Shown: one piece after another, positions 3,735 to 36,079 of the stretch
Layout: the number at the start of each line of letters is the position of its first letter
Numbering within the stretch: position 1 is the first letter of the stretch
Notes under the pieces: generated by a model
Databases searched by the model: none
What the model was told of the DNA's origin: nothing
What the model saw: only the letters and a program-made list of their open reading frames with translations
Origin: an uncultured Nitrospiraceae bacterium
GTDB taxonomy: Bacteria; Nitrospirota; Nitrospiria; Nitrospirales; Nitrospiraceae
NCBI GenBank assembly: GCA_963706325.1
Contig: CAVPLT010000007.1
Coordinates: forward strand, 224,001-288,000
Reading direction: 5' to 3'
Length of the DNA: 64,000 nucleotides
Made by a program: the position numbers and the translations under genes

Positions 3735-3800
3735 GATTTCTCAATGGGCCGGTGTCTCGTGTAGATCGACATGGGGGACAGGGGGAAAGGGAGGGCAACT

Positions 3801-5351
3801 ATGAGCGGAATAGACCGAGTTTATCCCTCGGTGAATGTGGGCCAAGCACGGACTAGCAATTCAGCGGGACAGGGGTTCGCTCAATTTCTTGCGCTCAGTC
3901 TTATGGTGATTGCGGTCAACGGCAGCCTACTGATCTTGCCAAAAGCGGTTCATTCGCAGGTAGAAGGCCCCGAACGCTCAGCCGAGTCCGATGAAGTGTT
4001 AAAAGAACGGGTGAGATCGCTGGAACGGACGGTGGAAGAGCTGAAGAAAGATCGTGGCTCACCTAAGGTCGGGGAGAGTAACGTCAAGCCCGATGAGGGG
4101 TATCAGGCTCCTACGGCGGGCACGAGCACTGAAGTTCCTGAACATCAACGTGAACGCGGAATGCTGCGTCAAGATAATTATGCTGGGCCTCGAGTCGACA
4201 ATGCTCCGTTCGATCCAAAAATGAGAGGGTTTTTTAGACTCCCCGGCACGAGCACCATGTTGCGCGTCGGAGGCTTTGCGAGAACGGACCTCATCCACGA
4301 CTTTTCACCGGCCGGAAACACTTCGAAGTTCATTCCGTCGTCCATTCCGACCGGACCGAATCCAGGAAACGACAATACGAGCCTGAGCGTAGCTCCCTCC
4401 AGGCTTAGTTTGGAACTGCGGAACAACACGAATTATGGTCCTCTGCGTATTTATTTTGAGAATGACTTCAACAACGGCCCGAACACAACAAACAGCTTCC
4501 GGCTGCGCCATTTCTATGGCCAATGGCAAAACATTCTTATCGGGCAGACGTGGTCGGCCTGGGAAGACGCGGATGTGATTCCCGACACGGTGGATTTCGA
4601 AGGGCCGAACTCATGGATTTTTAGACTCCAACCCCAAATCCGGTACACCTACGCCATGAATAAAGAGAACATTCTTGCGGCTTCTGTCGAGCAACCGAAC
4701 ACGGAGCTACCCAGCGCAGTGACTCTCCCCGGCGGCTCTGTCAACCTGAATGCGACCAGCCCGATCCCTGACTTTGTCGTCCGATACCGGCACGAGCAGG
4801 ACAAATTCCACATTCAAAATGCCTGGTTGGTTCGCTCTCTCGGGGGATTTGTCGGCGGGTCGGGAGAAAAGCAGGTCCTTGGGTGGGGCGGCATGCTGTC
4901 GGCTGCGGCCACGGTGTATGGCAAGGACAACGTGATGCTCCAAGGTATCATCGGGGAAGGGATTGCCCGCTACATCAATGACCTTGGCTCGGGTACCGCA
5001 CTCGACGTTGGCATCAGGCCGGACGGATCGATCATCGCCTTGCCGGCTTATGGAGCCTACGCCGCATATCAGCATTTTTGGGCTGAAAAATGGCGTTCGA
5101 CAGTCACCTATGGATATTTGCACGTCAATACGACCAACGTCGCAGGCCCCTCAGTCACCGGCAACTCCAACACTGCGTTCAAAAGCAGTCAGTATGCAGA
5201 AGGCAACCTGATGTACAGTCCTGGCGCAGGCTTCACAGTCGGGGCAGGGTTGCTGTGGGGGCAACACGTTGAAAAGGACGGTTCCCGCGGCGATGCGTTC
5301 CGCCTGAACTTTGTCTTGCAGTACGACCTTGTGAATCTTGGGAACTGGTGA
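3801..5351 (+). CDS. DcaP-family trimeric outer-membrane porin
   Basis: Signal peptide, coiled coil, FFRLPGTSTMLRVGGFAR, FRLRHFYG, GQTWS, VDFEGP, beta-barrel C-terminus. Confidence 0.85.
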   Translation: MSGIDRVYPSVNVGQARTSNSAGQGFAQFLALSLMVIAVNGSLLILPKAVHSQVEGPERSAESDEVLKERVRSLERTVEELKKDRGSPKVGESNVKPDEGYQAPTAGTSTEVPEHQRERGMLRQDNYAGPRVDNAPFDPKMRGFFRLPGTSTMLRVGGFARTDLIHDFSPAGNTSKFIPSSIPTGPNPGNDNTSLSVAPSRLSLELRNNTNYGPLRIYFENDFNNGPNTTNSFRLRHFYGQWQNILIGQTWSAWEDADVIPDTVDFEGPNSWIFRLQPQIRYTYAMNKENILAASVEQPNTELPSAVTLPGGSVNLNATSPIPDFVVRYRHEQDKFHIQNAWLVRSLGGFVGGSGEKQVLGWGGMLSAAATVYGKDNVMLQGIIGEGIARYINDLGSGTALDVGIRPDGSIIALPAYGAYAAYQHFWAEKWRSTVTYGYLHVNTTNVAGPSVTGNSNTAFKSSQYAEGNLMYSPGAGFTVGAGLLWGQHVEKDGSRGDAFRLNFVLQYDLVNLGNW

Positions 5352-5604
5352 CCGCTTGTCGATGTTGGGCGCCGAATCCACAGTCAGCAGGTCCACCACC
5401 GTTCATACGGGCATCGAATATTGAATTGAAACAGGCGTCGCGCCTGCCCCCTGCTCGCAGAACAGTCCTCAGGCGGTCCTGTACGAGCGCGATGGCCAGA
5501 AGGGCGCGAGCAGCTATGACGAAATACAACAGGGTAAAACCTCAATCACCTCAGTCGATGAGTTTTCCGAACCTGATTACATTGTTCAAAAAAGGGGGGC
5601 CGAC

Positions 5605-7248
5605 ATGAGCGACCATGAAAAGACGCATGCCGTTGATCTGCATTTTGGAAACCAAACACGTGAAGCCGACCGGGAAGATCCGCTTGGCCGCACGGACCGG
5701 TTAATTTCAGGTGAGATCCCACCTGGTGTCGATCGCCGCACATTCTTGATGCGGAGCGCGCTGATCGGGGCAACTGCGGTGATGTTAGGTCGCTCTGTCA
5801 GCGCCGAGGAGAGGACAGAGCGGTCCACCGCGGAGCCACCGCCGCTTTCCAAAGATCTGAACGTCGTAAAGAAGGAGAAGGGCCCCGTGATGACGACGGT
5901 GGACGAGTTTTACAAAGTCGGGCCCGGCCCATCGAGTTCACACACGATCGGCCCGATGCGCATTACCTATGATTTCTACCAACGTTGTACCAAACTGCCG
6001 GTGGACAAGCTTGAGAAGGCAACCGCGCTCAAGGTTCATTTGTATGGCAGCCTCAGCGCAACGGGCAAAGGGCATGGCACGGAACGGGCCTCGCTTGCGG
6101 GGTTGGTCGGGAAGGAGCCGGCAACCGTTGACCCCGCGTTTCTCGACAGCCTGCGCGATCAGCCTGACCAGTCGTTTCCGGTGAAGCTCGGCAGCAAGAC
6201 CCTGGATGTAAACCTCAAGGACATCGTCTATGACGCTCCCAAAGGCGACTTCCCGCATCCGAACACCATGACCTGCAAGCTCATGGCGGGTAAGGATGCA
6301 TTACTGGAGCAAGAGTACTACTCTGTGGGCGGCGGATTCATTGAATGGAAAGGATACCAGCCTCCGAAGAAAAACCCGCCGAAGTACCCGTTCTCAACCA
6401 TGAAAGAACTCCGGCACCATGCCGAGACAAACGACTTGACGATTGCCCAAGTCATCCTGGCCAACGAGATGTCCATCACTGGGAGAAGCGAGGCAGAGGT
6501 CTACGCCTTTATTGATAAAATCACGAATGCCATGGTGGCCACCGTCAAGTCAGGACTCAATGCACCGGAAGACGATGTGCTGCCTGGTCCGATTAAGCTG
6601 CATAGTAAAGCGGCAGTCGTGTACAAACGCGCCATGAATGATGAGTATCAGACGGATCGCGCCATTGGCGTCGTGTCCGCGTGGGCGCTGGCGGCGTCCG
6701 AGGAAAACGGCCGGGGGCATCTCGTCATCACCGCGCCGACAGGAGGGTCCGCGGGAGTCATGCCAGCCCTTGTCTATGGACTAAGCGAACAGCGCAAGCT
6801 TCCGGCAGAAAAGATCCGCCAGGGCATGCTTGCGGCGGCGGCGATTGGTTACCTGTGCAAACACAATGCGACGCTATCTGCAGCCGAGGGCGGCTGCCAG
6901 GCCGAAATCGGCGTTGCGTCAGCGATGGCCGCGGCCTTCCTCACGACCGCATACGATGCAAGTGCCCATGTCGTCGAGAACGCGGCGGAGTCCGCACTGG
7001 AACATCACCTGGGAATGACCTGCGACCCGGTTGCAGGATTCGTTCAGGTCCCATGCATTGAGCGATGCGCGTTCGGCGCCGTCAAGGCCTGGACCGCTTA
7101 CGCGATCGCCACCAATGAGATCGCAAGCAGACATCGGGTTGATTTGGACGCAACGATCACGGCGATGGCTCAGACCGCGAAGGAGATGAACAGCAAGTAC
7201 AAGGAAACGAGCGAAGCCGGATTAGCTCTCTCCGTGACGCTCTGCTAA
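5605..7248 (+). CDS. sdaA: Fe-S dependent L-serine ammonia-lyase with N-terminal Tat-like extension
   Basis: GPGPSSSHT, LYGSLSATGKGHGT, TAPT, GGCQAE, MTCDP, VPCIER, YKETS motifs; DRRTFL leader. Confidence 0.93.
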   Translation: MSDHEKTHAVDLHFGNQTREADREDPLGRTDRLISGEIPPGVDRRTFLMRSALIGATAVMLGRSVSAEERTERSTAEPPPLSKDLNVVKKEKGPVMTTVDEFYKVGPGPSSSHTIGPMRITYDFYQRCTKLPVDKLEKATALKVHLYGSLSATGKGHGTERASLAGLVGKEPATVDPAFLDSLRDQPDQSFPVKLGSKTLDVNLKDIVYDAPKGDFPHPNTMTCKLMAGKDALLEQEYYSVGGGFIEWKGYQPPKKNPPKYPFSTMKELRHHAETNDLTIAQVILANEMSITGRSEAEVYAFIDKITNAMVATVKSGLNAPEDDVLPGPIKLHSKAAVVYKRAMNDEYQTDRAIGVVSAWALAASEENGRGHLVITAPTGGSAGVMPALVYGLSEQRKLPAEKIRQGMLAAAAIGYLCKHNATLSAAEGGCQAEIGVASAMAAAFLTTAYDASAHVVENAAESALEHHLGMTCDPVAGFVQVPCIERCAFGAVKAWTAYAIATNEIASRHRVDLDATITAMAQTAKEMNSKYKETSEAGLALSVTLC

Positions 7249-7276
7249 ATCGAGCCGTGCGACCGATGAAGAATAG

Positions 7277-8578
7277 GTGGAAACGGGAGCAACGATCGAA
7301 GTGACAGGCAAGGAAGAACTACATAAGAGCGTGCGCATTGCTGTTATTGCCTGGATGTTGGCGGCGATTTACTATTTCTACCAGTACGCTCTTCGCTCAG
7401 CTCCAGCGGTGATGATGCCCGAACTGAGCAATGCATTCGGAATCAGCCCGCTCGCTGTCGCTTCCATTGTCGGTCTGTTCTATTACGGATACTCGCCCTT
7501 CAGTTTGGTCGCTGGAGCGGCGATGGATCGACTAGGGCCGCGTCGACTGCTGCCAGGGGCGGCGGTCATCGTCGGTATGGGGGCATTGCTGTTCGCGACA
7601 GGCAATCACAATCTCGCGAGCATCGGGAGGCTCATGCAGGGCGCAGGCGGCGTCTTTGCGCTTGTAGGCGCGATCTATATCGCGACCACAAACTTTGCGC
7701 CGTCGCGCGCCGCCACTTTGATTGGCGTCACCCAAATGTTTGGAATGGCGGGCGGATCGGCCGGACAATTCCTCGTTGGGCCACTGATTGGCAACGGGGT
7801 ACCCTGGAATGTCTTTTGGACGGCCATGGGAGTCGGCGGCTTGGTGATTGGCGCAATCTTGTTCGTGCTCCTCCCGAAAGACGAACCACCCAAACTGCCC
7901 GGGAGTGGATTCAAAAGCACCGCCAGAGGTTTCAAAACCGTGTTCAAGAACCCGCAGTCGATTTTGTGTGGCCTGATTGCCGGGTTACTGTTCATCCCGA
8001 CAACGATCTTCGACATGATTTGGGGCGTCCGTTATCTCCAGGAGGCGCATGGTCTGGAGTACGGATCGGCGGTCATGCGCTCGGCCGCGGTTCCCTTCGG
8101 TTGGATCATTGGTTGCCCCCTGCTTGGATTTATTTCCGATCGGATCGGACGGCGCAAACCGGTGATCCTCGGTGCCGCTCTCGTGCTGCTCGCCTGTCTG
8201 GCTTGGATTCTCTACGGCGAAACTGGCGTTTTCCCGCCTTATTCTGTAGGCCTCGTCGCCGGTGTCGCATCGGGCGCAGCCATGTTGCCATACACCATAA
8301 TCAAGGAGGCCAACCCGCCGCAGTTTGGTGGCACCGCCACAGGTGTGATCAATTTTTTGAATTTCACCTTTAGCGCATTGCTCGGGCCGGTCTTTACTTG
8401 GGTCCTGCAGAGTGTTTCTCGCGGAGCCCCACGAATGGAACTGGAGCATTATCAGTCCTCGTTTAGCTTGCTTCTCTACGGTGTTGCTATGGCAATCGTA
8501 TTGACCTTGTTGTTGAGAGAGACCGGACCGGCTATACGCACGGAGGCGACGAAACCCGCAAAGGGAGGCGAGAAATGA
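7277..8578 (+). CDS. MFS transporter
   Basis: ~12 hydrophobic segments; MDRLGPRR and SDRIGRRK motif A repeats. Confidence 0.92.
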   Translation: METGATIEVTGKEELHKSVRIAVIAWMLAAIYYFYQYALRSAPAVMMPELSNAFGISPLAVASIVGLFYYGYSPFSLVAGAAMDRLGPRRLLPGAAVIVGMGALLFATGNHNLASIGRLMQGAGGVFALVGAIYIATTNFAPSRAATLIGVTQMFGMAGGSAGQFLVGPLIGNGVPWNVFWTAMGVGGLVIGAILFVLLPKDEPPKLPGSGFKSTARGFKTVFKNPQSILCGLIAGLLFIPTTIFDMIWGVRYLQEAHGLEYGSAVMRSAAVPFGWIIGCPLLGFISDRIGRRKPVILGAALVLLACLAWILYGETGVFPPYSVGLVAGVASGAAMLPYTIIKEANPPQFGGTATGVINFLNFTFSALLGPVFTWVLQSVSRGAPRMELEHYQSSFSLLLYGVAMAIVLTLLLRETGPAIRTEATKPAKGGEK

Positions 8579-9507
8579 CACGGACAACCGGATCTGGAAA
8601 GTATGAACAGCTCCTTGTGCGGTGCGAAAATTTGGAGCCGGTTCCAACCGCGGTGGCACATCCCTGTGAGGCAACGGCATTGTCTGGCGCTGTCGAAGCT
8701 TTCAAGCAAAGATTGATTGTGCCACTTTTGGTTGGACCAGCCGCCAGCATCGCAAAGACAGCTGCATCAGCCGGGATCGATCTGGGCAACCTGGAAATCA
8801 TTGATGTGCCGCATAGCCATGCGGCAGCGGAGAAGGCAGTTGCGCTCATTCGAGAAGGTCGCGCTGAAATACTGATGAAGGGAAGCCTGCACACGGATGA
8901 GTTAATGGGGGCGGCTATCTCACGCGAGGGTGGACTGCGCACAGGACGTCGAATCAGCCACGTGTTCATCATGGATGTTCCGACCTATCACAAGCCTCTG
9001 CTCATTACGGATGGCGCAATCAATATTGCTCCAACTTTGGAAGACAAAGTTGATATTTGTCAGAACGCCATCGATCTTGCAATCTCGCTTGGACGGGATA
9101 GACCAAAAGTCGCGATTCTCGCCGCGGTTGAAACTGTGACGTCGAAAATGCCGGCGACGATTGACGCCGCCGCGCTCTGCAAGATGGCGGAACGCGGACA
9201 GATCAAGAACGGCTTGTTAGATGGGCCGCTGGCGTTCGACAATGCCATCAGCAAGGAAGCAGCCGAGACGAAAGGCATTCAATCCGAGGTTGCAGGCGAT
9301 CCCGACATCTTGCTCGCCCCTGATTTGGAAGCCGGCAATATGCTCGCCAAGCAATTGAGCTTTCTCGCCAATGCCGATAGTGCTGGCATGGTTCTGGGTG
9401 CGAAGGTGCCCATCATTCTCACCAGTCGTGCCGACAGTGTGCGTTCCAGAATCGCCAGTTGTGCCGTTGCGGTATTAGTGGCTCATGCACGGCGGAAGAA
9501 GCCCTAA
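8575..9507 (+). CDS. Phosphate acetyl/butyryltransferase (Ptb-type)
   Basis: LMKGSLHT, DGPLAFDNA, PDLEAGN, PIILTSRADS; ATGA overlap with MFS. Confidence 0.9.
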   Translation: MTRTTGSGKYEQLLVRCENLEPVPTAVAHPCEATALSGAVEAFKQRLIVPLLVGPAASIAKTAASAGIDLGNLEIIDVPHSHAAAEKAVALIREGRAEILMKGSLHTDELMGAAISREGGLRTGRRISHVFIMDVPTYHKPLLITDGAINIAPTLEDKVDICQNAIDLAISLGRDRPKVAILAAVETVTSKMPATIDAAALCKMAERGQIKNGLLDGPLAFDNAISKEAAETKGIQSEVAGDPDILLAPDLEAGNMLAKQLSFLANADSAGMVLGAKVPIILTSRADSVRSRIASCAVAVLVAHARRKKP

Positions 9508-9517
9508 AGGTAGGACG

Positions 9518-10695
9518 ATGGACGACTACGCGCTCGTACTCAACGCCGGCTCGTCGAGTCTGAAATTCTGCGTTTTTCAGCGACCGGCTCTCCAAGCCTG
9601 GCGCCTCGAAGCACGAGGTCAAGTCGAAGGAATCGGTACGTCGCCTCGACTATCCGTCAAGGACGCCCACGGTAGTTCGCTCGTAAATCAGGATGTCGCC
9701 GTGCGTGACGGACGCGGAGCCATCGATGCGGTCGCAGTGTGGCTGAAATCGAAGTATGGTGGCTCGCACGTGGCTGCAGTCGGTCATCGCGTCGTCCATG
9801 GCGGGACACGTTTCAGCGGACCGATAGTCGTGAATCCCGAAGTTCTCGCAGCGTTGCGCGAGTTGGTTCCACTGGCACCCCTGCATCAGCCTCACAACCT
9901 GGCGGCCATCGAAGCTGTCTCTGAACGATTGCCCAACGTGCCGCAGGTTGCCTGTTTCGATACCAGCTTCCATTGTGGACACCCCGCCGTCGCCGACCTG
10001 ATCCCCCTGCCGCATGACCTTCGGCGGTTAGGCATTCAGAGATACGGCTTTCATGGTTTGTCTTACGAATATATCGCTTCGGTCCTGCCGGAGGTCGCGC
10101 CTGAGATTGCGCACGGACGCGTCATCGTCGCACATCTCGGAAGCGGCGCCAGCTTGTGCGCGCTCCAAAATGGCAGAAGTGTCGACAGCACGCTCGGATT
10201 CACCGCATTGGATGGCCTCTGTATGGGTACGAGACCCGGCGCGCTCGACCCTGGCGTCGTATTGCATCTCTTTCAAGGTCTGAAACTCTCAGCGAAAGAA
10301 GTAGAAGCAGTGCTGTACAAAAAGTCAGGTCTTCTCGGCATCTCAGGAATCAGTAACGACATGCGCGACCTCCTGGGACGACAGGAGCCGGAGGCACGGC
10401 TTGCGGTGGACTACTTCGTCTATCGCGCTGCGAAGGAAATTGGCGCGCTCGCGGCTGTTCTACGTGGCGTCGATGCCCTGGTGTTTACCGCCGGTATCGG
10501 AGAAAACTCGCCGGAGATTCGCCAGCGAATCTGTGAGGCGTCGGCGTGGCTGGGCATCGCACTCGATGCGGGGGCAAATGCCCAAAGGTCCAAGGATTTC
10601 GACAGCCGCAGAGCAAGGTTTCTGTGTGGGTGATCCCGACCAATGAAGAACTAATGATTGCCCGACATACCGCGTCTCTGCTTGGATTGCGCTAA
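9518..10695 (+). CDS. ackA: Acetate/propionate kinase; two frameshifts near the C-terminus as given (pseudogene or sequence error)
   Basis: [45 protein letters not shown]; conserved tail GPRIST and [15 protein letters not shown] lie in two other frames. Confidence 0.88.
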
Positions 10696-10712
10696 CGAAA
10701 GGAGAGAGGGCG

Positions 10713-12979
10713 ATGGCTACATCAGTTCCGGCAAAACTCGAATCCAAGGGCGCCAAGGCAACTCGGGCTGGGAGGGGTTCAATCTAGGGCTCTGGCAAAA
10801 GGAAATCAACGTTCGCAACTTTATCCAGCAGAATTACAAACCGTATGAAGGGAATCACTCCTTTCTCGCCCCAGCAACCGACCGTACCAAGAGGATCTGG
10901 AAAATCCTCACGGACCTTTTTGTAGAAGAACGTAAAAAGGGTGTTCTGGATGTATCCCAGATTCCCAGCTCCATCACTGCACACCGTCCAGGGTACATCG
11001 ATCGTGATAATGAAGTCATCGTTGGTCTGCAAACCGAGGCGCCCCTCAAGCGCGCAATCATGCCGAATGGCGGCTTCCGCATGGTGGTCAATGCGCTCAA
11101 AACGTACGGGTACGAACCAGAGCCACATCTGGTCGAGACTTTTACCAAATACCGAAAGACTCATAACGAGGCCGTGTTCGATGCGTATACGGCAGCCGTC
11201 AAGCTGTGTCGCAGTTCGCATATCCTGACTGGACTCCCCGACGCGTACGGTCGGGGTCGAATCATCGGCGACTACCGGCGCGTCGCCCTTTACGGTGTCG
11301 CGCGTCTGATCGAGCGCAAGCAGGAGGAGAAACGCAGCATCGATGACATGATGTCGACTGACGAGATCATTCGCGACCGCGAAGAACTCAGTGAACAGAT
11401 TCGCGCGCTCGAGGAACTGCAGAAAATGGCGGCCGCTTACGGATTCGATATTTCCATTCCGGCTCGCACGTCGCGCGAGGCTGTGCAGTGGCTCTACTTC
11501 GCATACTTGGCCGCGGTGAAAGAGCAAAACGGCGCGGCGATGTCCTTGGGACGGACCTCAACGTTTCTGGACATCTATTTCGAGCGTGACCTCGCAACAG
11601 GCGCGATCACCGAACAACAGGCGCAGGAAATCATCGATGACTTCGTCATCAAACTGCGCATTGTCCGTTTTTTGCGCACGCCGGAATACGATGAACTATT
11701 CGCGGGCGACCCAACGTGGGTCACCGAATCGATTGCCGGTATGGGAGATGATGGTCGGTCGCTCGTCACCAAGACGAGCTTTCGGTATCTACAGACGCTC
11801 TACAATCTCGGTCCGGCGCCGGAACCAAATCTGACGATATGGTATTCCCCGCGACTGCCCGATGATTTTCGTAGTTTCGCGGCAAAGGTAGCGATCGATA
11901 CGAGTTCAATTCAATTCGAAAACGACGAGATCATGCGAAGTACCTGGGGAGATGATGGTGCCATCGCGTGCTGTGTCTCGCCGATGCTGGTCGGCAAGCA
12001 AATGCAGTTTTTCGGGGCTCGAGCCAACATGGCAAAGTGTTTTTTGTACGCGATCAATGGCGGTCGAGATGAACTCACCGGGAAGCAGGTGGGTCCGGCG
12101 ACCGAGCCCGTCAAGGGAGAGTATCTCGATATCGAGGACGTGATAGATCGCTTCGAAGCGACGATGGACTGGCTCGCCGGTGTCTATGTCAACGCCATGA
12201 ATATCATCCACTACATGCACGACAAATATGCCTATGAGCGGATTGAAATGGCGCTTCACGATTATGCGCCGTTGCGAACCATGGCGTTTGGCATGGCGGG
12301 TATGTCCGTGGTTGCCGACAGCCTCTCTGCTATCCGTTATGCGAAGGTCCGCGTGGTCCGCGATCAGACAGGTCTCATTACCGACTATCAAACCGAAGGC
12401 GAGTTTCCTCAGTTTGGGAACAACGACAACCGCGTCGATCAGCTCGCGACCTGGATCGTGAGCACGTTCATGAAGAAACTGAGGAAATATCCGACATACC
12501 GACAGGCACTGCACACGCAATCGATCCTGACGATCACGTCAAATGTCGTCTATGGCAAGAACACCGGCAACACGCCCGATGGGAGGCGACAGGGACAGCC
12601 GTTCGCTCCCGGCGCCAATCCAATGCATGGACGGGATAAGCATGGCGTTCATGCGTCGGCTGCATCGGTCGCCAAAATTCCCTACCGGGACGCCGCCGAC
12701 GGCATTTCACTCACGACATCGTTGGTGCCGCAGGGCCTGGGAAGAGTGGAGGAGGATCGGATCAAGAATCTGCGGGGCATGCTTGACGCGTTTTTCGGCT
12801 CGACGGGCTATCACATGAACGTCAATGTATTGAACCGTGAAACCCTGCTTGACGCCATGGACCATCCCGAGAAGTATCCAAGTTTGACGATCCGGGTCTC
12901 GGGCTATGCCGTAAACTTTGTGCGCTTGTCCCGGGAGCAACAATTGGATGTCATCAATCGCACCTTCCACGGGTCGTGA
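10713..12979 (+). CDS. pflB: Pyruvate formate-lyase; 1-nt frameshift near codon 19 as given
   Basis: [27 protein letters not shown] glycyl-radical motif; RBS-preceded ATG 10713 (MATSVPAK) is out of frame with the long ORF 10658-12979. Confidence 0.93.
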
Positions 12980-13063
12980 CGGACGCGCTAATCAGCTTTA
13001 GAGGGGATAAACGAGAACTGGGGCTCTTGCTTCACAAACCGCCGTTGAAATAGGAGACGGTCT

Positions 13064-13909
13064 ATGCCTCCTGGTGAGACACATGAGTCTGGGTCGCTCG
13101 AGGCAAACAGCCCGTTCGAGCTTCGGGTGGACAAAGGCAGTCATGTCCCCGAGTCGACTATCAAACAAGCGCTCGAGAGCGGAGATATCGGATTCATCCA
13201 CTCATTTACCACGGGATCGGCTGTCGATGGACCGGGAATGCGGGTCGTAGCATGGCTGTCGGGATGCCAGTTCCGGTGCCTGTACTGCCACAACCCTGAC
13301 ACGTGGAGCCTAAGTAACGGCATGCCTGTGCCGTTGGCACGCGCGATCGAGGAGCTTCGCAAATATCGTCACGGGCTGAAGGTGATGTCCGGCGGGTTCA
13401 CCATCAGTGGTGGCGAGCCACTCATGCAGGATCGGTTTGTCGTCAAGTTATTCACCGCTACGCATGAAATGGGGATCCACACCGCGTTGGACACCAACGG
13501 TTTTCTCGGCGATCGCCTCAGCGACGGCGAGTTGGAAAAGATCAACCTCGTGCTGCTCGATATCAAAACCTGGGACGCCCAGCGACACCGACACCTGACC
13601 GGAAAGGATGTCGGCCCGACCATCGATTTCGCGCGCCGGCTGGCTGCCCGCAAACGGCCATGTTGGCTTCGTTTCGTCCTGGTGCCGGCATTAACCGACG
13701 ACCCGCAGGACATTTCGCGAATTGCCAAGTTCGCGGCTGGGCTGGGAAATATTGAACGCGTGGATGTACTGCCTTTTCATCAGTTGGGCCAATTCAAATG
13801 GAAAGAACTGGGTCTTGATTACACTCTGGAAAATACAGCGCCCCCGTCCCATGAACTGGTTCAACGCGTGTGCGCTCAATTCGCGGCGGAAGGCCTGAAG
13901 GTATACTGA
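13064..13909 (+). CDS. pflA: Pyruvate formate-lyase activating enzyme (radical SAM)
   Basis: VDGPG, CQFRCLYCHNPDT, SGGEP, LPFHQLG; adjacent to pflB. Confidence 0.95.
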   Translation: MPPGETHESGSLEANSPFELRVDKGSHVPESTIKQALESGDIGFIHSFTTGSAVDGPGMRVVAWLSGCQFRCLYCHNPDTWSLSNGMPVPLARAIEELRKYRHGLKVMSGGFTISGGEPLMQDRFVVKLFTATHEMGIHTALDTNGFLGDRLSDGELEKINLVLLDIKTWDAQRHRHLTGKDVGPTIDFARRLAARKRPCWLRFVLVPALTDDPQDISRIAKFAAGLGNIERVDVLPFHQLGQFKWKELGLDYTLENTAPPSHELVQRVCAQFAAEGLKVY

Positions 13910-14295
13910 TAGGCTGAATTGCACCCCGACACCCGGAGCAGCGGAGAACCATCACGAATTGGTTGGAATGTCAGGGAGTAGTCTGGAGTTGGCAAGAGAT
14001 GAAGTATAAAAAAATGGAAAACCTCGCAAAATCAAGTCATTGTTAAAAATATTCTGAATCGACTCTCCTAGAACACACCTGAACGATAAGCCGTCAGCCC
14101 GTCGCCGATCCTTCCCAAAATAGCCGTCATCGCCGCTATCGCACAGGCGCAGGCGATCGGCCGTTGCGGTCGTTCCCCCTTTGCTGAACCTGTCAAATCT
14201 GACAGTATCCGACGTCACCTCTCCATGCTACCTAATGACCGGATACACTTGGTCTACTTTTGCGTGAGAACGCAATGACGAAGGAGGTTCGGGGC

Positions 14296-17028
<2,733 letters not shown>

Positions 17029-17042
17029 AGAGGGGGTGCTAT

Positions 17043-17400
17043 ATAGTATGGTCTTCACACCCGCATCTATGAGATCAACACGTGAGTTTGGCTCAAGGAG
17101 CTGAGCCGTAAGTACAATCGTTCCGTCGCACTTGAGACGGTGCCCAAGGAGGAGTGGAATACGAGAGCGGACGCGCGTGCCGACGCGGTCTGGTTCATGG
17201 GGGTGTGGGCGCGAAGTCCAGCCGGTGACGATCGCGCGGACCAATCCGTCCTTCATGAGCGATTGTACCCCGCGCTCTCACCGGTCGTACGGATCGTGAC
17301 ATCGTCGGCCCCCCCTACTGCGTCCGCCGCTATGTGGTGGATGCAGTATTAGGAGGACAGGAGGGCTTGGCCGAGGCGAGGAAGCAGCTTGCAAGGCGAG
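17043..17400 (+). pseudogene. Alpha-amylase (GH13) family N-terminal remnant
   Basis: IYEINT*VWLKELSR...DAVWFMGVWARSPAG / DIVGPPYCVRRYVVDAVLGGQEGLAEARKQLARR; in-frame stop, frameshifts, truncation. Confidence 0.75.
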
Positions 17401-17494
17401 CGGTGAGCATGTGCATGATGGGGATGAATTCAGGCGATCCCTCGCTTGTACTACAACAGATTAACCGATCGTCACCAGTGCCCAGATCAGAAAG

Positions 17495-18955
17495 GTGAGA
17501 ATGACGAGGGACAGTGCTCAGGGTTTCGTGACTCGATGTTCTGTCCGCATCCCAACCATCGGAAAGCTTTTCTATCTTTCCATCATTCTCTTGTGCGTCG
17601 GATGTCGTGCAACCCCTGTCTTCTCTGTTCCAACCACGAATACACCCGCCACGTGCATCACACCGGCCGGCGATAAGAAACTACTCGTCGGTCTCGCGGT
17701 GTCGGGCGGAGGTAGTCGCGCAGCACTATTTGCGGCAGGAGCTTTCGAGGCGTTGGGCCGAATCGCCATTGGTCCTCAGAAGCAATCGTTGCTCGAGCAG
17801 GTCTCCTACATATCAAGCGTATCGGGCGGCAGCATGGCCTCGTCCTATTTTGCGCTCAAGAAACCGTCGCGGGACGTTTCAGTTCTGAATCAAACCGGAG
17901 AGATCAGCGCTGATTATCAACGGTTTTTTAAGAGTTTCAAAGAAAGCATGGGCAAAGACTATGAGGGGTTGTTGCTGTGGCGACAACTCGCCTATTTCCG
18001 TTGGTTCAACCCCTCTTGGACCGCCCAATCTCTTGCGGAAGGCCTCAGTGAAAATTATTTGGGCGAGGCCAAGTTTACAGACCTGGCTCAGCGGGAGACA
18101 CGAGGAGATAGCCCACGCCTTCTCATCAATACCACACTTTACAATGATGGACGGCGGTTTCTTTTGAGTACGCTTCCGCGGGAGAATTCTCAGTTCGACC
18201 TGATAGGCGACCTCGAGCATTTTCCGAAGATCATGTCGCTGGAGAAGCAGGCTCTCGACCTGATGCGCGTGAAGTGGGACAGTCTCATTTCCATGGTCCC
18301 GGAGGATTTAGGGATCAATGCCTGTCCGGTCCGAATTGCCGGCGCGGTCGCCGCCTCCATGTCTTTCCCGCCGATTATCGGCCCCATTACGCTTGGTGAC
18401 GCCAAGAGAGAACGCTATTGGCACATCGGAGATGGGGGATTGTCCGATAACACCGGCGGGGAATCATTGCTGATGGTGTTTTTGAAACAACTCCAGGAAG
18501 ATCCTAACCGGCGGGCCATCATGATACTCATCGATAGCTCGTTCCCCTTTTCCGTGGGGGGAGAAGTACTAGACCATCGGAAAGAAGGTTTTAGCCTGCT
18601 TAATTACGACTACTCGAGAATTCCTTCCATTATGGAAGAACGATCCCTGGCCTATCGAGGCTTGTTTCTTTCCATAGGGCAAAGCATAGGACTGCTGCCG
18701 GGCCCGGAGCGAATTCGAGTGATCCGCTTGCGACACACCGATGCTGTATGGAATGACAATCTGAATGACCTCCCGGACTCATGCAAAAAACAGCGAATCG
18801 ACTGGAAGTCCCCGAAGGACGTCGGCAAGCACCTTTCGGGAATCGTGACCCGATTGTGGCTCGAGTCGACCTGCGATCAGGATTTGATTCTCGCCGCCGC
18901 TGCCAAAGTGGTCGCTGCAAGTGAGAGCAATATCAGGACCTTCCTGGAGAGATGA
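17495..18955 (+). CDS. Patatin-like phospholipase (probable lipoprotein; start uncertain)
   Basis: SGGGSRA, SVSGG nucleophile elbow, DGG; LCVG-C. Confidence 0.85.
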   Translation: MRMTRDSAQGFVTRCSVRIPTIGKLFYLSIILLCVGCRATPVFSVPTTNTPATCITPAGDKKLLVGLAVSGGGSRAALFAAGAFEALGRIAIGPQKQSLLEQVSYISSVSGGSMASSYFALKKPSRDVSVLNQTGEISADYQRFFKSFKESMGKDYEGLLLWRQLAYFRWFNPSWTAQSLAEGLSENYLGEAKFTDLAQRETRGDSPRLLINTTLYNDGRRFLLSTLPRENSQFDLIGDLEHFPKIMSLEKQALDLMRVKWDSLISMVPEDLGINACPVRIAGAVAASMSFPPIIGPITLGDAKRERYWHIGDGGLSDNTGGESLLMVFLKQLQEDPNRRAIMILIDSSFPFSVGGEVLDHRKEGFSLLNYDYSRIPSIMEERSLAYRGLFLSIGQSIGLLPGPERIRVIRLRHTDAVWNDNLNDLPDSCKKQRIDWKSPKDVGKHLSGIVTRLWLESTCDQDLILAAAAKVVAASESNIRTFLER

Positions 18956-18982
18956 TCCTGGACATGGCTTCATCACAGTCAG

Positions 18983-20077
18983 ATGGGAGTTCCCATTTAC
19001 CAGGAGATCATGAACAGGAGCCATCGGGGAACTGAATCGGCTAAGGTGGGCAAACGGCCGCGAGTGGCGCTGATGGCCTTCATCGTGATCGTGTCGGCCT
19101 GTGCGCTCTTAACGGCATATGTGCTGGACAGCGGGTTGACGGCGGGTCGGTCCGTGCCCGCCGGGATGAAGTGGATCGCCGGTGGGGAATTCGACATGGG
19201 CTCAGACGAGCCGATGTTCGGAGATGCGCAGCCAATCCATCGAGTGTCTGTCGACGGATTTTGGATCGATGAGACCGAGGTCACGAATGCCCAATTCGCC
19301 GAGTTTGTGAAGACGACCGGTTATCTCACTGCGGCCGAACGGATCCCGAACGCGAAAGACTATCCGGGCGCTAAGCCCGAGATGTTATTTGCCGGATCGG
19401 TGGTCTTCTCTCCCTCTGATCAGGCGGTATCGCTCCACGACCATTTTCAGTGGTGGAACTACGTGAAGGGCGCCGATTGGCGGCATCCCGAGGGGAGCGG
19501 CAGTTCCATCGAGCGACGCATGGACCATCCGGTCGTGCATATCGCGTATGAAGACGCCGAGGCCTATGCCAAGTGGGCTGCGAAACGGCTTCCCACCGAG
19601 GCGGAGTGGGAGTTTGCGGCGCGCGGTGGTCTCGCGAGGAAGAAATTTGTCTGGGGCGATTCATTCCTGCCGGACGGCCATGCCATGGCAAATACCTTCC
19701 AGGGCCACTTCCCCGATCGCAACACGCAGGAAGACGGGTACATCTCCACGTCGCCCGTGAAAGGTTTTCCCCATAACGGATATGGTCTCTATGGCATGGC
19801 CGGGAATGTCTGGGAATGGACCGCCGACTGGTACCGCCACGATACCTATATCCGTCGTGGGGCTACCCATGAACCAGTCCGCAATCCGAAAGGTCCGACC
19901 GTACAGGACAGTTTCGATCCATCCGAGCCTGGTGTCGCCAAACGAGTTCATAAAGGCGGCTCGTTCCTTTGCACCGATCAATACTGCGCGCGTTATATGC
20001 CGGGAGGACGGGGCAAGGGCGCACCCGATACCGGCACGAATCATCTGGGGTTTCGGTTGGTGCGCGATGCCGCATAA
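18983..20077 (+). CDS. Formylglycine-generating enzyme (SUMF1/FGE) family protein
   Basis: HPVVHI, RLPTEAEWEFAARGG, GNVWEW, GGSFLCTDQYCARY, HLGFR. Confidence 0.92.
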   Translation: MGVPIYQEIMNRSHRGTESAKVGKRPRVALMAFIVIVSACALLTAYVLDSGLTAGRSVPAGMKWIAGGEFDMGSDEPMFGDAQPIHRVSVDGFWIDETEVTNAQFAEFVKTTGYLTAAERIPNAKDYPGAKPEMLFAGSVVFSPSDQAVSLHDHFQWWNYVKGADWRHPEGSGSSIERRMDHPVVHIAYEDAEAYAKWAAKRLPTEAEWEFAARGGLARKKFVWGDSFLPDGHAMANTFQGHFPDRNTQEDGYISTSPVKGFPHNGYGLYGMAGNVWEWTADWYRHDTYIRRGATHEPVRNPKGPTVQDSFDPSEPGVAKRVHKGGSFLCTDQYCARYMPGGRGKGAPDTGTNHLGFRLVRDAA

Positions 20078-35290: not shown

Positions 35291-36079
35291 ATGGACACGA
35301 AGCGAATGAGAGGGTGTGTTCTCTGCATCACCGTCATGATGGCCTGCTCGATTGCCGGATGCGGCAGCTCAGCGAAGCTCATGCATGGGCTCAGCATTGA
35401 GGAGTTGAAACCAGTGCCGGGCATCTTGCCCAGCGCGAGGCTGGTCAGGGGCACCATCAGCGGCATTGCCGGCGATCGCGTGGAGGTCAACACCGGCGAA
35501 CGAACCCCGCGATACCTGTCGCTCGAGGCCGGAGGGGACGAAGCTCGTGGCCTGCAGGTTGGGGGAGCGGTTGAGATTATGGTGAATGATCGGGATGAGA
35601 TCGTGACGTATCAGCGTCCCGCCGAAATCTTGCCGACGAAAATCTTCCGAGGCGCTCTGGGAAAGCCGTTCAATCCTGAGAAAGAGCGCGTGACGATTCG
35701 TCTCGACACGGGACGGGACGTCGGATTTTACGCGCGTCGCGTCGCCATGGAAAAGCTTGCCGCCCTGGAGGTCGGCGAAACAGCCGATTTTGCCGTGGAT
35801 CGAGCCTACCTTCTCGTCGATGTCTTCTCCCTAGGAAAGCCGCGCGAATTGGCCGTCGGCTCATCTTCTCGGGCACCCCAGCGGCGCGTGGAAGGCGCTT
35901 TTGTGACCATCGGGGATGGGCGAGTGCGCCTTCGCGTGAAAATCGATGACATTCAGTCTTTTCCCGTGCGGCCGTTGCTTCAGCCGGCGATCGAGCAGTT
36001 GGCTCCTAACGAGTCGGTATCCGTCTATCTCGATGCACAGGGACAGGTGATTGATATGAATCAAGTGGCGCGGCGCTGA
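35291..36079 (+). CDS. Hypothetical lipoprotein with three repeated small beta domains
   Basis: Lipobox IAG-C; three ~70-aa similar units (V.G.I...V.V...L.VG..V.I.VD). Confidence 0.65.
   Translation: MDTKRMRGCVLCITVMMACSIAGCGSSAKLMHGLSIEELKPVPGILPSARLVRGTISGIAGDRVEVNTGERTPRYLSLEAGGDEARGLQVGGAVEIMVNDRDEIVTYQRPAEILPTKIFRGALGKPFNPEKERVTIRLDTGRDVGFYARRVAMEKLAALEVGETADFAVDRAYLLVDVFSLGKPRELAVGSSSRAPQRRVEGAFVTIGDGRVRLRVKIDDIQSFPVRPLLQPAIEQLAPNESVSVYLDAQGQVIDMNQVARR

Follow-up and report, generated by a model that had tools for sequence, protein, structure and literature searches.

The window analysed here is a 64,000-nucleotide stretch of contig CAVPLT010000007.1 (positions 224,001 to 288,000) from an uncultured member of the Nitrospiraceae. 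On its + strand, at 5605-7248, lies an open reading frame (ORF) for a single-chain protein of 547 residues which, judged by its sequence, is a [4Fe-4S] L-serine dehydratase. The members of this family that have been characterised work in the cytoplasm, and many are oxygen-labile. The protein in the window, however, carries a leader of 95 residues ahead of the dehydratase core, and this leader resembles a signal for the twin-arginine translocation (Tat) pathway. A Tat-exported serine dehydratase is the best reading of the gene, based on the conservation of the arginine pair, a lipobox variant of the leader, the tat genes of the host and a strong ribosome site at ATG5605. Export of the enzyme is regarded as very probable.

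Anatomy and conservation of the leader

The start codon ATG5605 is preceded by a ribosome-binding site (AAGGGGGG, 5589..5607, + strand, start codon included) with a duplex energy of -11.2 kcal/mol, computed, as were all such values, against an anti-Shine–Dalgarno core. Met96 of the protein aligns to Met1 of the Legionella pneumophila enzyme (4RQO), which makes the 95 residues before it extra relative to the core. They form a tripartite leader and a linker, all on the + strand. A long, variable and acidic n-region (residues 1-42, 5605..5730) is followed by the twin-arginine motif D-R-R-T-F-L-M-R (residues 43-50, 5731..5754), of which D43-R-R-T-F-L48 occupies 5731-5748. The hydrophobic h-region consists of the twelve uncharged residues S51-G62 (SALIGATAVMLG, 5755-5790) and, with Arg63 (at 5791) and V65-S66-A67 (5797-5805), extends over 5755..5805; V-S-A67 is a candidate signal peptidase I site by eye. 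The initial annotation, which had described some 95 additional residues containing D-R-R-T-F-L, a hydrophobic stretch and V-S-A, is borne out in these respects. Its "Pro-rich linker", in contrast, is mainly charged and contains only three prolines (78-80). The linker gives way to the conserved segment L81-V95 (residues 68-95 together, 5806..5889), and the predicted local distance difference test (pLDDT) score of the AlphaFold model climbs from 44 to 97 across residues 68-107. The arginine pair begins at residue 44 in this protein, compared with about residue 25-29 in most homologues. Arg63 fits the Sec-avoidance basic residue described for Tat signals (PMC7317946), and many homologues have a lipobox Cys at the same position.

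Of 338 matches from species genomes, the best 80 were kept as loci for assessing conservation and are hence biased towards leader-bearing copies; 79 of the 80 were readable for the leader. The arginine pair proved to be conserved among homologues, in line with the initial annotation's reading of the leader. Of the 120 best protein hits, 116 have RRxF ahead of the core; in the other four the gene call begins at the inner Met49, and for one of these the RR codons are present in the DNA. An RR leader is in frame in 68 of the 79 loci, labelled Acidobacteriota, Pseudomonadota, Planctomycetota, Verrucomicrobiota, Myxococcota and Cyanobacteriota. The 11 other loci comprise one at a contig edge, three in which the leader is out of frame with the core (the shift lying at a different site in each), three from Verrucomicrobiae with a break, and four without RR. 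Over 69 loci the first arginine is encoded by five synonymous codons and the second by all six, hence the motif is conserved as protein. A chance extension of the ORF was ruled out by the conservation of the leader and this codon usage. Averaged over 64 homologues, column conservation is high in the core (0.84), the pre-core segment (residues 81-100; 0.78), the RR block (0.73) and the h-region (0.68), and low in the linker (0.36) and the n-region (residues 1-36; 0.21). A Tat-like rule, self-written after the motif had been seen, gave a single match among 579,853 positions inside the ORFs of the genome. Of 1764 ORFs with at least 300 residues, 13 matched it at the N-terminus, including this ORF and three NxrA-like proteins.

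The strongest sign of real export is a cysteine at a fixed position, which strongly favours this reading of the sequence. In 36 of the 68 loci a Cys lies exactly 19 residues after the first Arg, within a lipobox of the form LTGC, ITGC, MTGC, LAGC or LNGC that continues with Ser, Ala or Thr. Lipobox and non-lipobox forms are intermixed across the tree. Among the 116 close homologues the lipobox Cys is found in two only, and the copy in the window, with Arg63 at this position, is without a lipobox. Three leaders from the deepest branch of the clade (L038, L045 and L048) have, besides the lipobox, four cysteines in two CxxC-like pairs in the n-region before RR.

Tat signals have been described as having both arginines, the Phe, an h-region, and a basic residue or an AxA-like site in the c-region, and in the motif S/T-R-R-x-F-L-K only the RR is near-essential (PMC7317946). 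The leader has RR and F, an h-region of at least 12 residues, a basic residue in the c-region and, by eye, a candidate peptidase site. The host, a Nitrospira whose genome is 96% complete, has two tatC genes and four TatA/B/E-family matches. Further, more distant relatives (41-44% identity), found by an exhaustive search of 50%-identity representatives, bear short textbook Tat signals, such as MTLRRTFLK in P0177 and MDRRDFCK in P0173; P0194 has a KR variant. Two Nitrospirota genomes have MDRRNFLR (L095 among the carriers).

Several observations weigh against export. The leader scores 16.2 bits with the hidden Markov model (HMM) TIGR01409, just below the cut-off of 16.7, and gives no match to the Pfam model TAT_signal (PF10518). 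Eight homologue leader pieces were split by TIGR01409, four passing and four giving no match, and 18 of 64 full proteins matched at E<=1; the NxrA-like leader of the host, used as a control, passed with 20.3 bits. The n-region lacks the usual short, positively charged form. One further concern is that the leader is lost or broken in a total of seven loci, of which four (L064, L070, L077 and L080) have no RR leader and three, all Verrucomicrobiae, share a frame break just after RRxF. In the Verrucomicrobiae L071, L073, L076 and L077 the leader is apparently being lost, through the shared break in three and an in-frame deletion in the fourth; all four have Ser at position 380 and no neighbour from the major facilitator superfamily (MFS).

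Translation start, enzyme core and substrate

A start at an internal Met, raised by the initial annotation as a threat to its own proposal, is countered by the strong ribosome site of ATG5605, but Met96 also has a good Shine–Dalgarno-like site. The hexamer AAGGAG lies 9-12 nt before GTG5887/ATG5890 (-8.8/-8.4 kcal/mol), and a site of -5 or stronger precedes Met96 in 31 of 63 homologues, compared with 97 of 799 internal Mets. Both findings speak for a dual start and against a solely exported enzyme. With a dual start, the exported form would be made from ATG5605 and a cytoplasmic form of canonical length from GTG5887 or ATG5890, and the latter may supply most of the pyruvate to pyruvate formate-lyase (PFL). 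The alignment of Met96 with the Legionella start, the existence of leaderless clade members and the absence of any other SdaA-family gene from the host genome are all in keeping with this. However, the purine run before Met96 is largely due to the encoded KKxKG, in which the Lys codons follow the gene background and Gly93 is GGG or GGA in 29 of 71 sequences against a background of 27%, a slight excess among related sequences. Met96 is retained in 71 of 77 loci and replaced by Ile (ATC) or Leu in the other six, and the upstream start of the homologues has a stronger site (median -8.0, picked as the best of several). A dual start is judged unlikely. A start at Met49 (ATG5749), which would give a Sec signal, was rejected for lack of a ribosome site (+0.6 kcal/mol; -5 or stronger in 6 of 56 homologues). 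Among five genomes checked, two have a separate leaderless SdaA; one genome has two leader-bearing copies.

The type 2 [4Fe-4S] L-serine dehydratase core occupies 5890..7248 on the + strand. It scores 407.9 bits with TIGR00720, the model for single-chain L-serine ammonia-lyase (cut-off 345.1), and PF03315 and PF03313 are fused in it, with SDH_beta at residues 101-249 and SDH_alpha at 276-541. The three cluster cysteines that the initial annotation reported as retained are indeed present (C431, C473 and C484), as they are in 61 of 61 clade members, and the protein ends in C547, with a terminal Cys in 77 of 79 loci. H157 aligns with His61 and C547 with Cys458 of the Legionella enzyme, which have been described as the likely catalytic base and the fourth cluster ligand, respectively (PMC12647591). 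The GPSSSH motif (S110-H113) is present, and S110-S112, H113, H157, H218, N220, T379 and the three cluster cysteines are invariant in the 61 clade members. The AlphaFold model of residues 68-547 has a mean pLDDT of 93.9 and superimposes on 4RQO with a template-modelling score of 0.82-0.89 (Z 45.8, root-mean-square deviation 2.3 over 422 residues). The type 2 enzymes of L. pneumophila and Escherichia coli (SdaA, SdaB and TdcG) thus share with this protein the domain order, the fold, the three cluster cysteines, the terminal Cys and the catalytic His. The protein differs from them in its 95-residue Tat-like leader (of Tat-lipoprotein type in many homologues), in the conserved pre-core segment, and in Gly380, Cys418, Cys488 and about 40 other clade-specific positions. 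A FastTree analysis of 136 cores unites the 61 close homologues that bear a leader in a separate clade (support 100), to which P0177 and P0194 are sister (85); P0173 and three leaderless proteins belong to the next group (91).

Two of the clade-specific positions, 380 and 488, lie near the active site and complicate the assignment of substrate. The canonical APTNG and CIERN motifs are replaced by APTGG and CIERC: Gly380 is found in 58 of 61 clade members, where 57 of 74 others have Asn, and Cys488 in 61 of 61, where 72 of 74 others have Asn (the exceptions being P0177 and P0194). Cys418 is likewise present in 61 of 61 members but in only one of 74 others (P0173). These changes, with an identity of only about 40% to characterised enzymes, would suit an exported enzyme that prefers L-threonine, L-cysteine or another beta-substituted amino acid. 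With L-threonine, the product would be 2-ketobutyrate, which PFL, Pta and the kinase would carry on to propionate, as happens with the tdc system of E. coli. Such a preference is nevertheless judged to have a small chance of being right, given the TIGR00720 equivalog cut-off passed and the invariance of S110-S112, H113, H157, T379, H218 and N220. The L-cysteine desulfidase CyuA, next in the structure comparison, is far more distant (Z 22.5 vs 45.8; 9-13% identity). CyuA uses Cys23/Glu25, given in PMC12647591 as absent from SdaA/B, whereas the protein in the window keeps the SdaA-type His. L-serine is the likeliest substrate. Cys488 lies one helical turn beyond the ligand C484, and it is possible that Cys418 and Cys488 form a disulfide or provide an extra protective thiol; leaderless members keep both. 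A C128-C224 disulfide was dismissed, as the two residues do not co-vary (both in 41 sequences, one only in 13, neither in 7).

The fermentation cassette and the possible purpose of the predicted export

The gene heads a conserved sda-MFS-pta-ackA-pflB-pflA cassette which, from the families of its products, is one for turning serine into acetate, formate and ATP. The genes downstream, all on the + strand and overlooked by the initial annotation, encode an MFS transporter that is a candidate pyruvate or carboxylate carrier (7277..8578; PF07690), phosphate acetyltransferase (pta, 8575..9507; NF008852, 516 bits, cut-off 413), acetate kinase (ackA, 9518..10695, frameshifted near the 3' end; TIGR00016, 342.9 bits, cut-off 293.4), PFL (pflB, 10713..12979, frameshifted at about 10767; TIGR01255, 1139 bits, cut-off 994) and the PFL-activating radical SAM enzyme (pflA, 13064..13909; TIGR02493, 286.8 bits, cut-off 231.75). 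A DcaP-family outer-membrane porin gene lies upstream (3801..5351, + strand; PF19577, 50.2 bits; 6EUS, E 1.3e-5) and is syntenic in G346, an amoA-bearing comammox genome from another genus of the family. Within about 8 kb of the gene, the 80 loci hold Ack in 59, Pta in 53, PFL in 52, the activase in 48, MFS in 45 and DcaP in 18; for the 59 loci with more than 5 kb on each side the counts are 47, 42, 38, 38, 33 and 13, respectively. The firm link is therefore to pyruvate fermentation, and that to DcaP is loose. The proposal that the enzyme is fed by DcaP, whose homologues are mostly 26-38% identical, is accordingly weak.

The cargo of the MFS carrier is one gap in a fermentative reading, as searches for a PDB relative by sequence or profile found none and Atlas returned only generic MFS clusters. 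Arg40 and Arg118 are invariant in 38 MFS homologues and resemble, by eye and unaligned, Arg47/Arg126 of DgoT (PMC6532931). A second difficulty lies in the breaks in ackA (near 10580-10608) and pflB (near 10767) in this assembly. Contigs that are about 4% divergent carry compensating indels in 3-4 of 4 public runs, G346 has an intact pflB start with its own breaks elsewhere, and the breaks of sibling assemblies fall elsewhere or at a comparable position. The likelier explanation is that errors are scattered through the assembly, with local decay as the alternative. Also split in this assembly are one of three nxrA-like copies (G000:C7:709576-713030) and a formate dehydrogenase-like gene (C4:756947-758948).

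One of the closest known systems is the E. coli tdcABCDEFG operon for anaerobic breakdown of threonine and serine, which combines an Fe-S dehydratase (TdcG), a transporter, a PFL-type lyase (TdcE) and an acyl kinase (TdcD). Its RidA-family gene (TdcF) also has a counterpart, as RidA-family proteins occur in four cassette loci. However, in E. coli the amino acid is imported by TdcC and deaminated inside the cell by TdcG, a leaderless protein of 454 residues. The present cassette has a dehydratase with a predicted export leader, an MFS carrier, and Pta and the PFL activase in the operon, and it is without TdcB and TdcA. Among the window genes at 3771-20074, no Pfam or NCBIfam match to TdcA, TdcB or TdcC (HAAAP-type) was found. 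The cassette works like tdc, yet it is not a tdc operon. The logic proposed for it is also that of E. coli AnsB, the periplasmic L-asparaginase II, which with Dcu/AspA deaminates its substrate in the periplasm under anoxia while the acid product is imported, and which can coexist with a cytoplasmic paralogue. AnsB, in contrast, is a cofactor-free Sec substrate of unrelated fold and substrate. The RRxF motif and h-region are shared with Tat lipoproteins and with Tat-exported Fe-S proteins such as Rieske proteins, hydrogenase small subunits and Nitrospira NxrA. In these Fe-S proteins, as in all Tat-exported ones known to us, the clusters transfer electrons, whereas that of the present enzyme would take part in catalysis as an exposed Lewis acid. 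No characterised periplasmic Fe-S hydro-lyase is known to us.

Based on these observations, the protein would be translated from ATG5605, folded and loaded with its [4Fe-4S] cluster in the cytoplasm, as described for Tat Fe-S substrates (PMC7317946), and exported in the folded state by Tat. Signal peptidase I would probably free it by cutting after V-S-A67; in roughly half of the homologues, a lipid anchor at the lipobox Cys would instead hold the enzyme. In the periplasm, incoming L-serine would be split into pyruvate and ammonium. The adjacent MFS carrier would import the pyruvate, and under anoxia PFL, Pta and AckA would convert it to formate, acetate and ATP. The benefit may be twofold: an enzyme that meets only external serine would leave the internal pool untouched, and neither ammonium nor the aminoacrylate intermediate would arise in the cytoplasm. 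The scheme as a whole, from Tat export through periplasmic serine splitting and pyruvate import to anoxic fermentation, is considered fairly likely.

Export could serve acid resistance or ammonia supply instead of fermentation, although this is improbable. Genes for glutaminases (8 loci, with N-termini that look signal-like by eye), aspartase-family lyases (12 loci) and DcuA/B (7 loci) recur nearby, the comammox genome G346 has the same cassette, and the host has an Amt transporter. Nevertheless, fermentation genes are far commoner partners, and the host genome gives no match to amoA in a search that finds the gene in G346, which served as positive control. By our own stoichiometric reasoning, conversion of the serine zwitterion to the pyruvate anion and NH4+ uses no proton above about pH 3. 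As no proton would be consumed at soil pH, acid resistance is weak as a purpose; a better one seems to be to shield internal serine from the enzyme and to confine aminoacrylate to the outside. Acid resistance or ammonia supply may still come as a side benefit of periplasmic serine fermentation.

The remnant Tat peptide of NarG is a precedent for a leader that does not export. That the present leader is likewise a remnant, or a chaperone-binding or membrane-tethering peptide, with the enzyme on the cytoplasmic side, would agree with the unusually high conservation of the RR block and h-region for a signal peptide, the borderline HMM score, the cytoplasmic location of all pathway partners and the loss of the leader in some members, but it is most improbable, since a fixed lipobox Cys in 36 of 68 loci would be useless on that side, the divergent sisters have textbook short Tat signals, and the leader shows the full set of features given in PMC7317946 (both arginines, the Phe, an h-region of at least 12 residues, and in the c-region a basic residue or an AxA-like site).

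Host, distribution and implications

The host is a nitrite oxidiser from soil, and the cluster mates of five of seven core proteins encoded in the window bear the name Nitrospira. Three large molybdoenzyme genes of the host look like nxrA, which we take them to be. The gene and pflB are each found in one of 39 genomes of the genus, and the gene in five of 401 genomes of the phylum. This rarity points to horizontal gain of the cassette. The same cassette from dcaP to pflA is found in G346, with 84.6% DNA identity over 7.5 kb. Among plasmids no clade member was found, all 246 records being below 60% identity. Linkage of the gene to core genes recurs in other assemblies (contigs of 153,969, 166,538 and 132,824 bases), possibly from one campaign. 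The flanks of the G346 cassette (L092:1-5972) contain a phosphoketolase, a second acetate kinase and a glycogen phosphorylase-like gene, with ATP synthase genes at 19192, and they suggest a larger anoxic-survival island.

No description of a periplasmic, secreted, extracellular or Tat-targeted serine dehydratase was found in a literature search that covered sources other than most subscription journals and supplements. By its sequence the leader-bearing enzyme is a real variant of a known enzyme family and of a tdc-like fermentation. If the proposal is true, the range of what the periplasm can host would extend to an enzyme whose catalytic cluster is exposed, and the case would show how a cluster may be protected there. 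Soil Acidobacteria and members of other phyla commonly carry the cassette, but there it is annotated as plain cytoplasmic serine dehydratase, so that extracytoplasmic mineralisation of amino-acid nitrogen would be hidden in genome-based models. For Nitrospira, it would add a fermentation pathway that was not found in the 38 other genomes searched in the genus, and which bears on nitrifier survival under anoxia. A review credits Nitrospira with formate oxidation both in the presence and in the absence of oxygen, and with feeding ammonia oxidisers from urea (PMC6311188). The host has formate dehydrogenase-like genes, although these are below cut-off and one is split.

A broader picture can be offered tentatively. 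In a widespread clade of soil bacteria, serine fermentation may begin outside the cytoplasm. Its first step would be taken by a catalytic [4Fe-4S] hydro-lyase that the terminal Cys plug, together with the new Cys418 and Cys488 (possibly as a disulfide), makes robust enough for the periplasm, and a dedicated pyruvate carrier would be its partner. In the host, a canonical nitrite oxidiser, the acquired cassette might then serve as an anoxic energy route, with ATP from acetyl phosphate and with formate for formate dehydrogenase and nitrate reduction. The ammonium left outside might reach ammonia oxidisers nearby, with amino acids in the part that urea plays in the known reciprocal feeding. Cultured carriers of the gene (Vineibacter terrae, Microvirga puerhi, Sphingomonas sp. 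LaA6.9 and Phenylobacterium sp. J367) make direct testing feasible.

Scans for promoters, FNR sites and sigma-54 sites gave no more than chance results and no site ahead of the cassette. One perfect palindrome of the FNR type (TTGAT-N4-ATCAA) lies at 36051-36064 of the window, far from the cassette, and the count of such sites in the window is at chance level. The RidA-family (PF01042) genes of four loci encode proteins with N-termini that look signal-like by eye, and are candidate periplasmic imine deaminases (L003:9580-10014, directly downstream of the dehydratase gene, L020:7041-7493, L025:15301-15783 and L074:9485-9916). One aspartase-family lyase (L041:2784-4259) has a signal-peptide-like N-terminus and stands beside DcaP and DcuA/B; the other copies are without such an N-terminus. 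A Nitrospirota locus encodes a pyridoxal phosphate-dependent decarboxylase (PF00282; L094:5925-7205) with the Tat-like leader MNRRDFMK; genes for a serine dehydratase without a leader and for an amino-acid permease follow directly downstream. Finally, the cassette in the window lies within a long stretch of slightly lower guanine-cytosine content (G000:C7:195000-260000, that is, window positions 1-36000 and the sequence upstream) that is rich in genes for secreted proteins, lipoproteins, porins and efflux.

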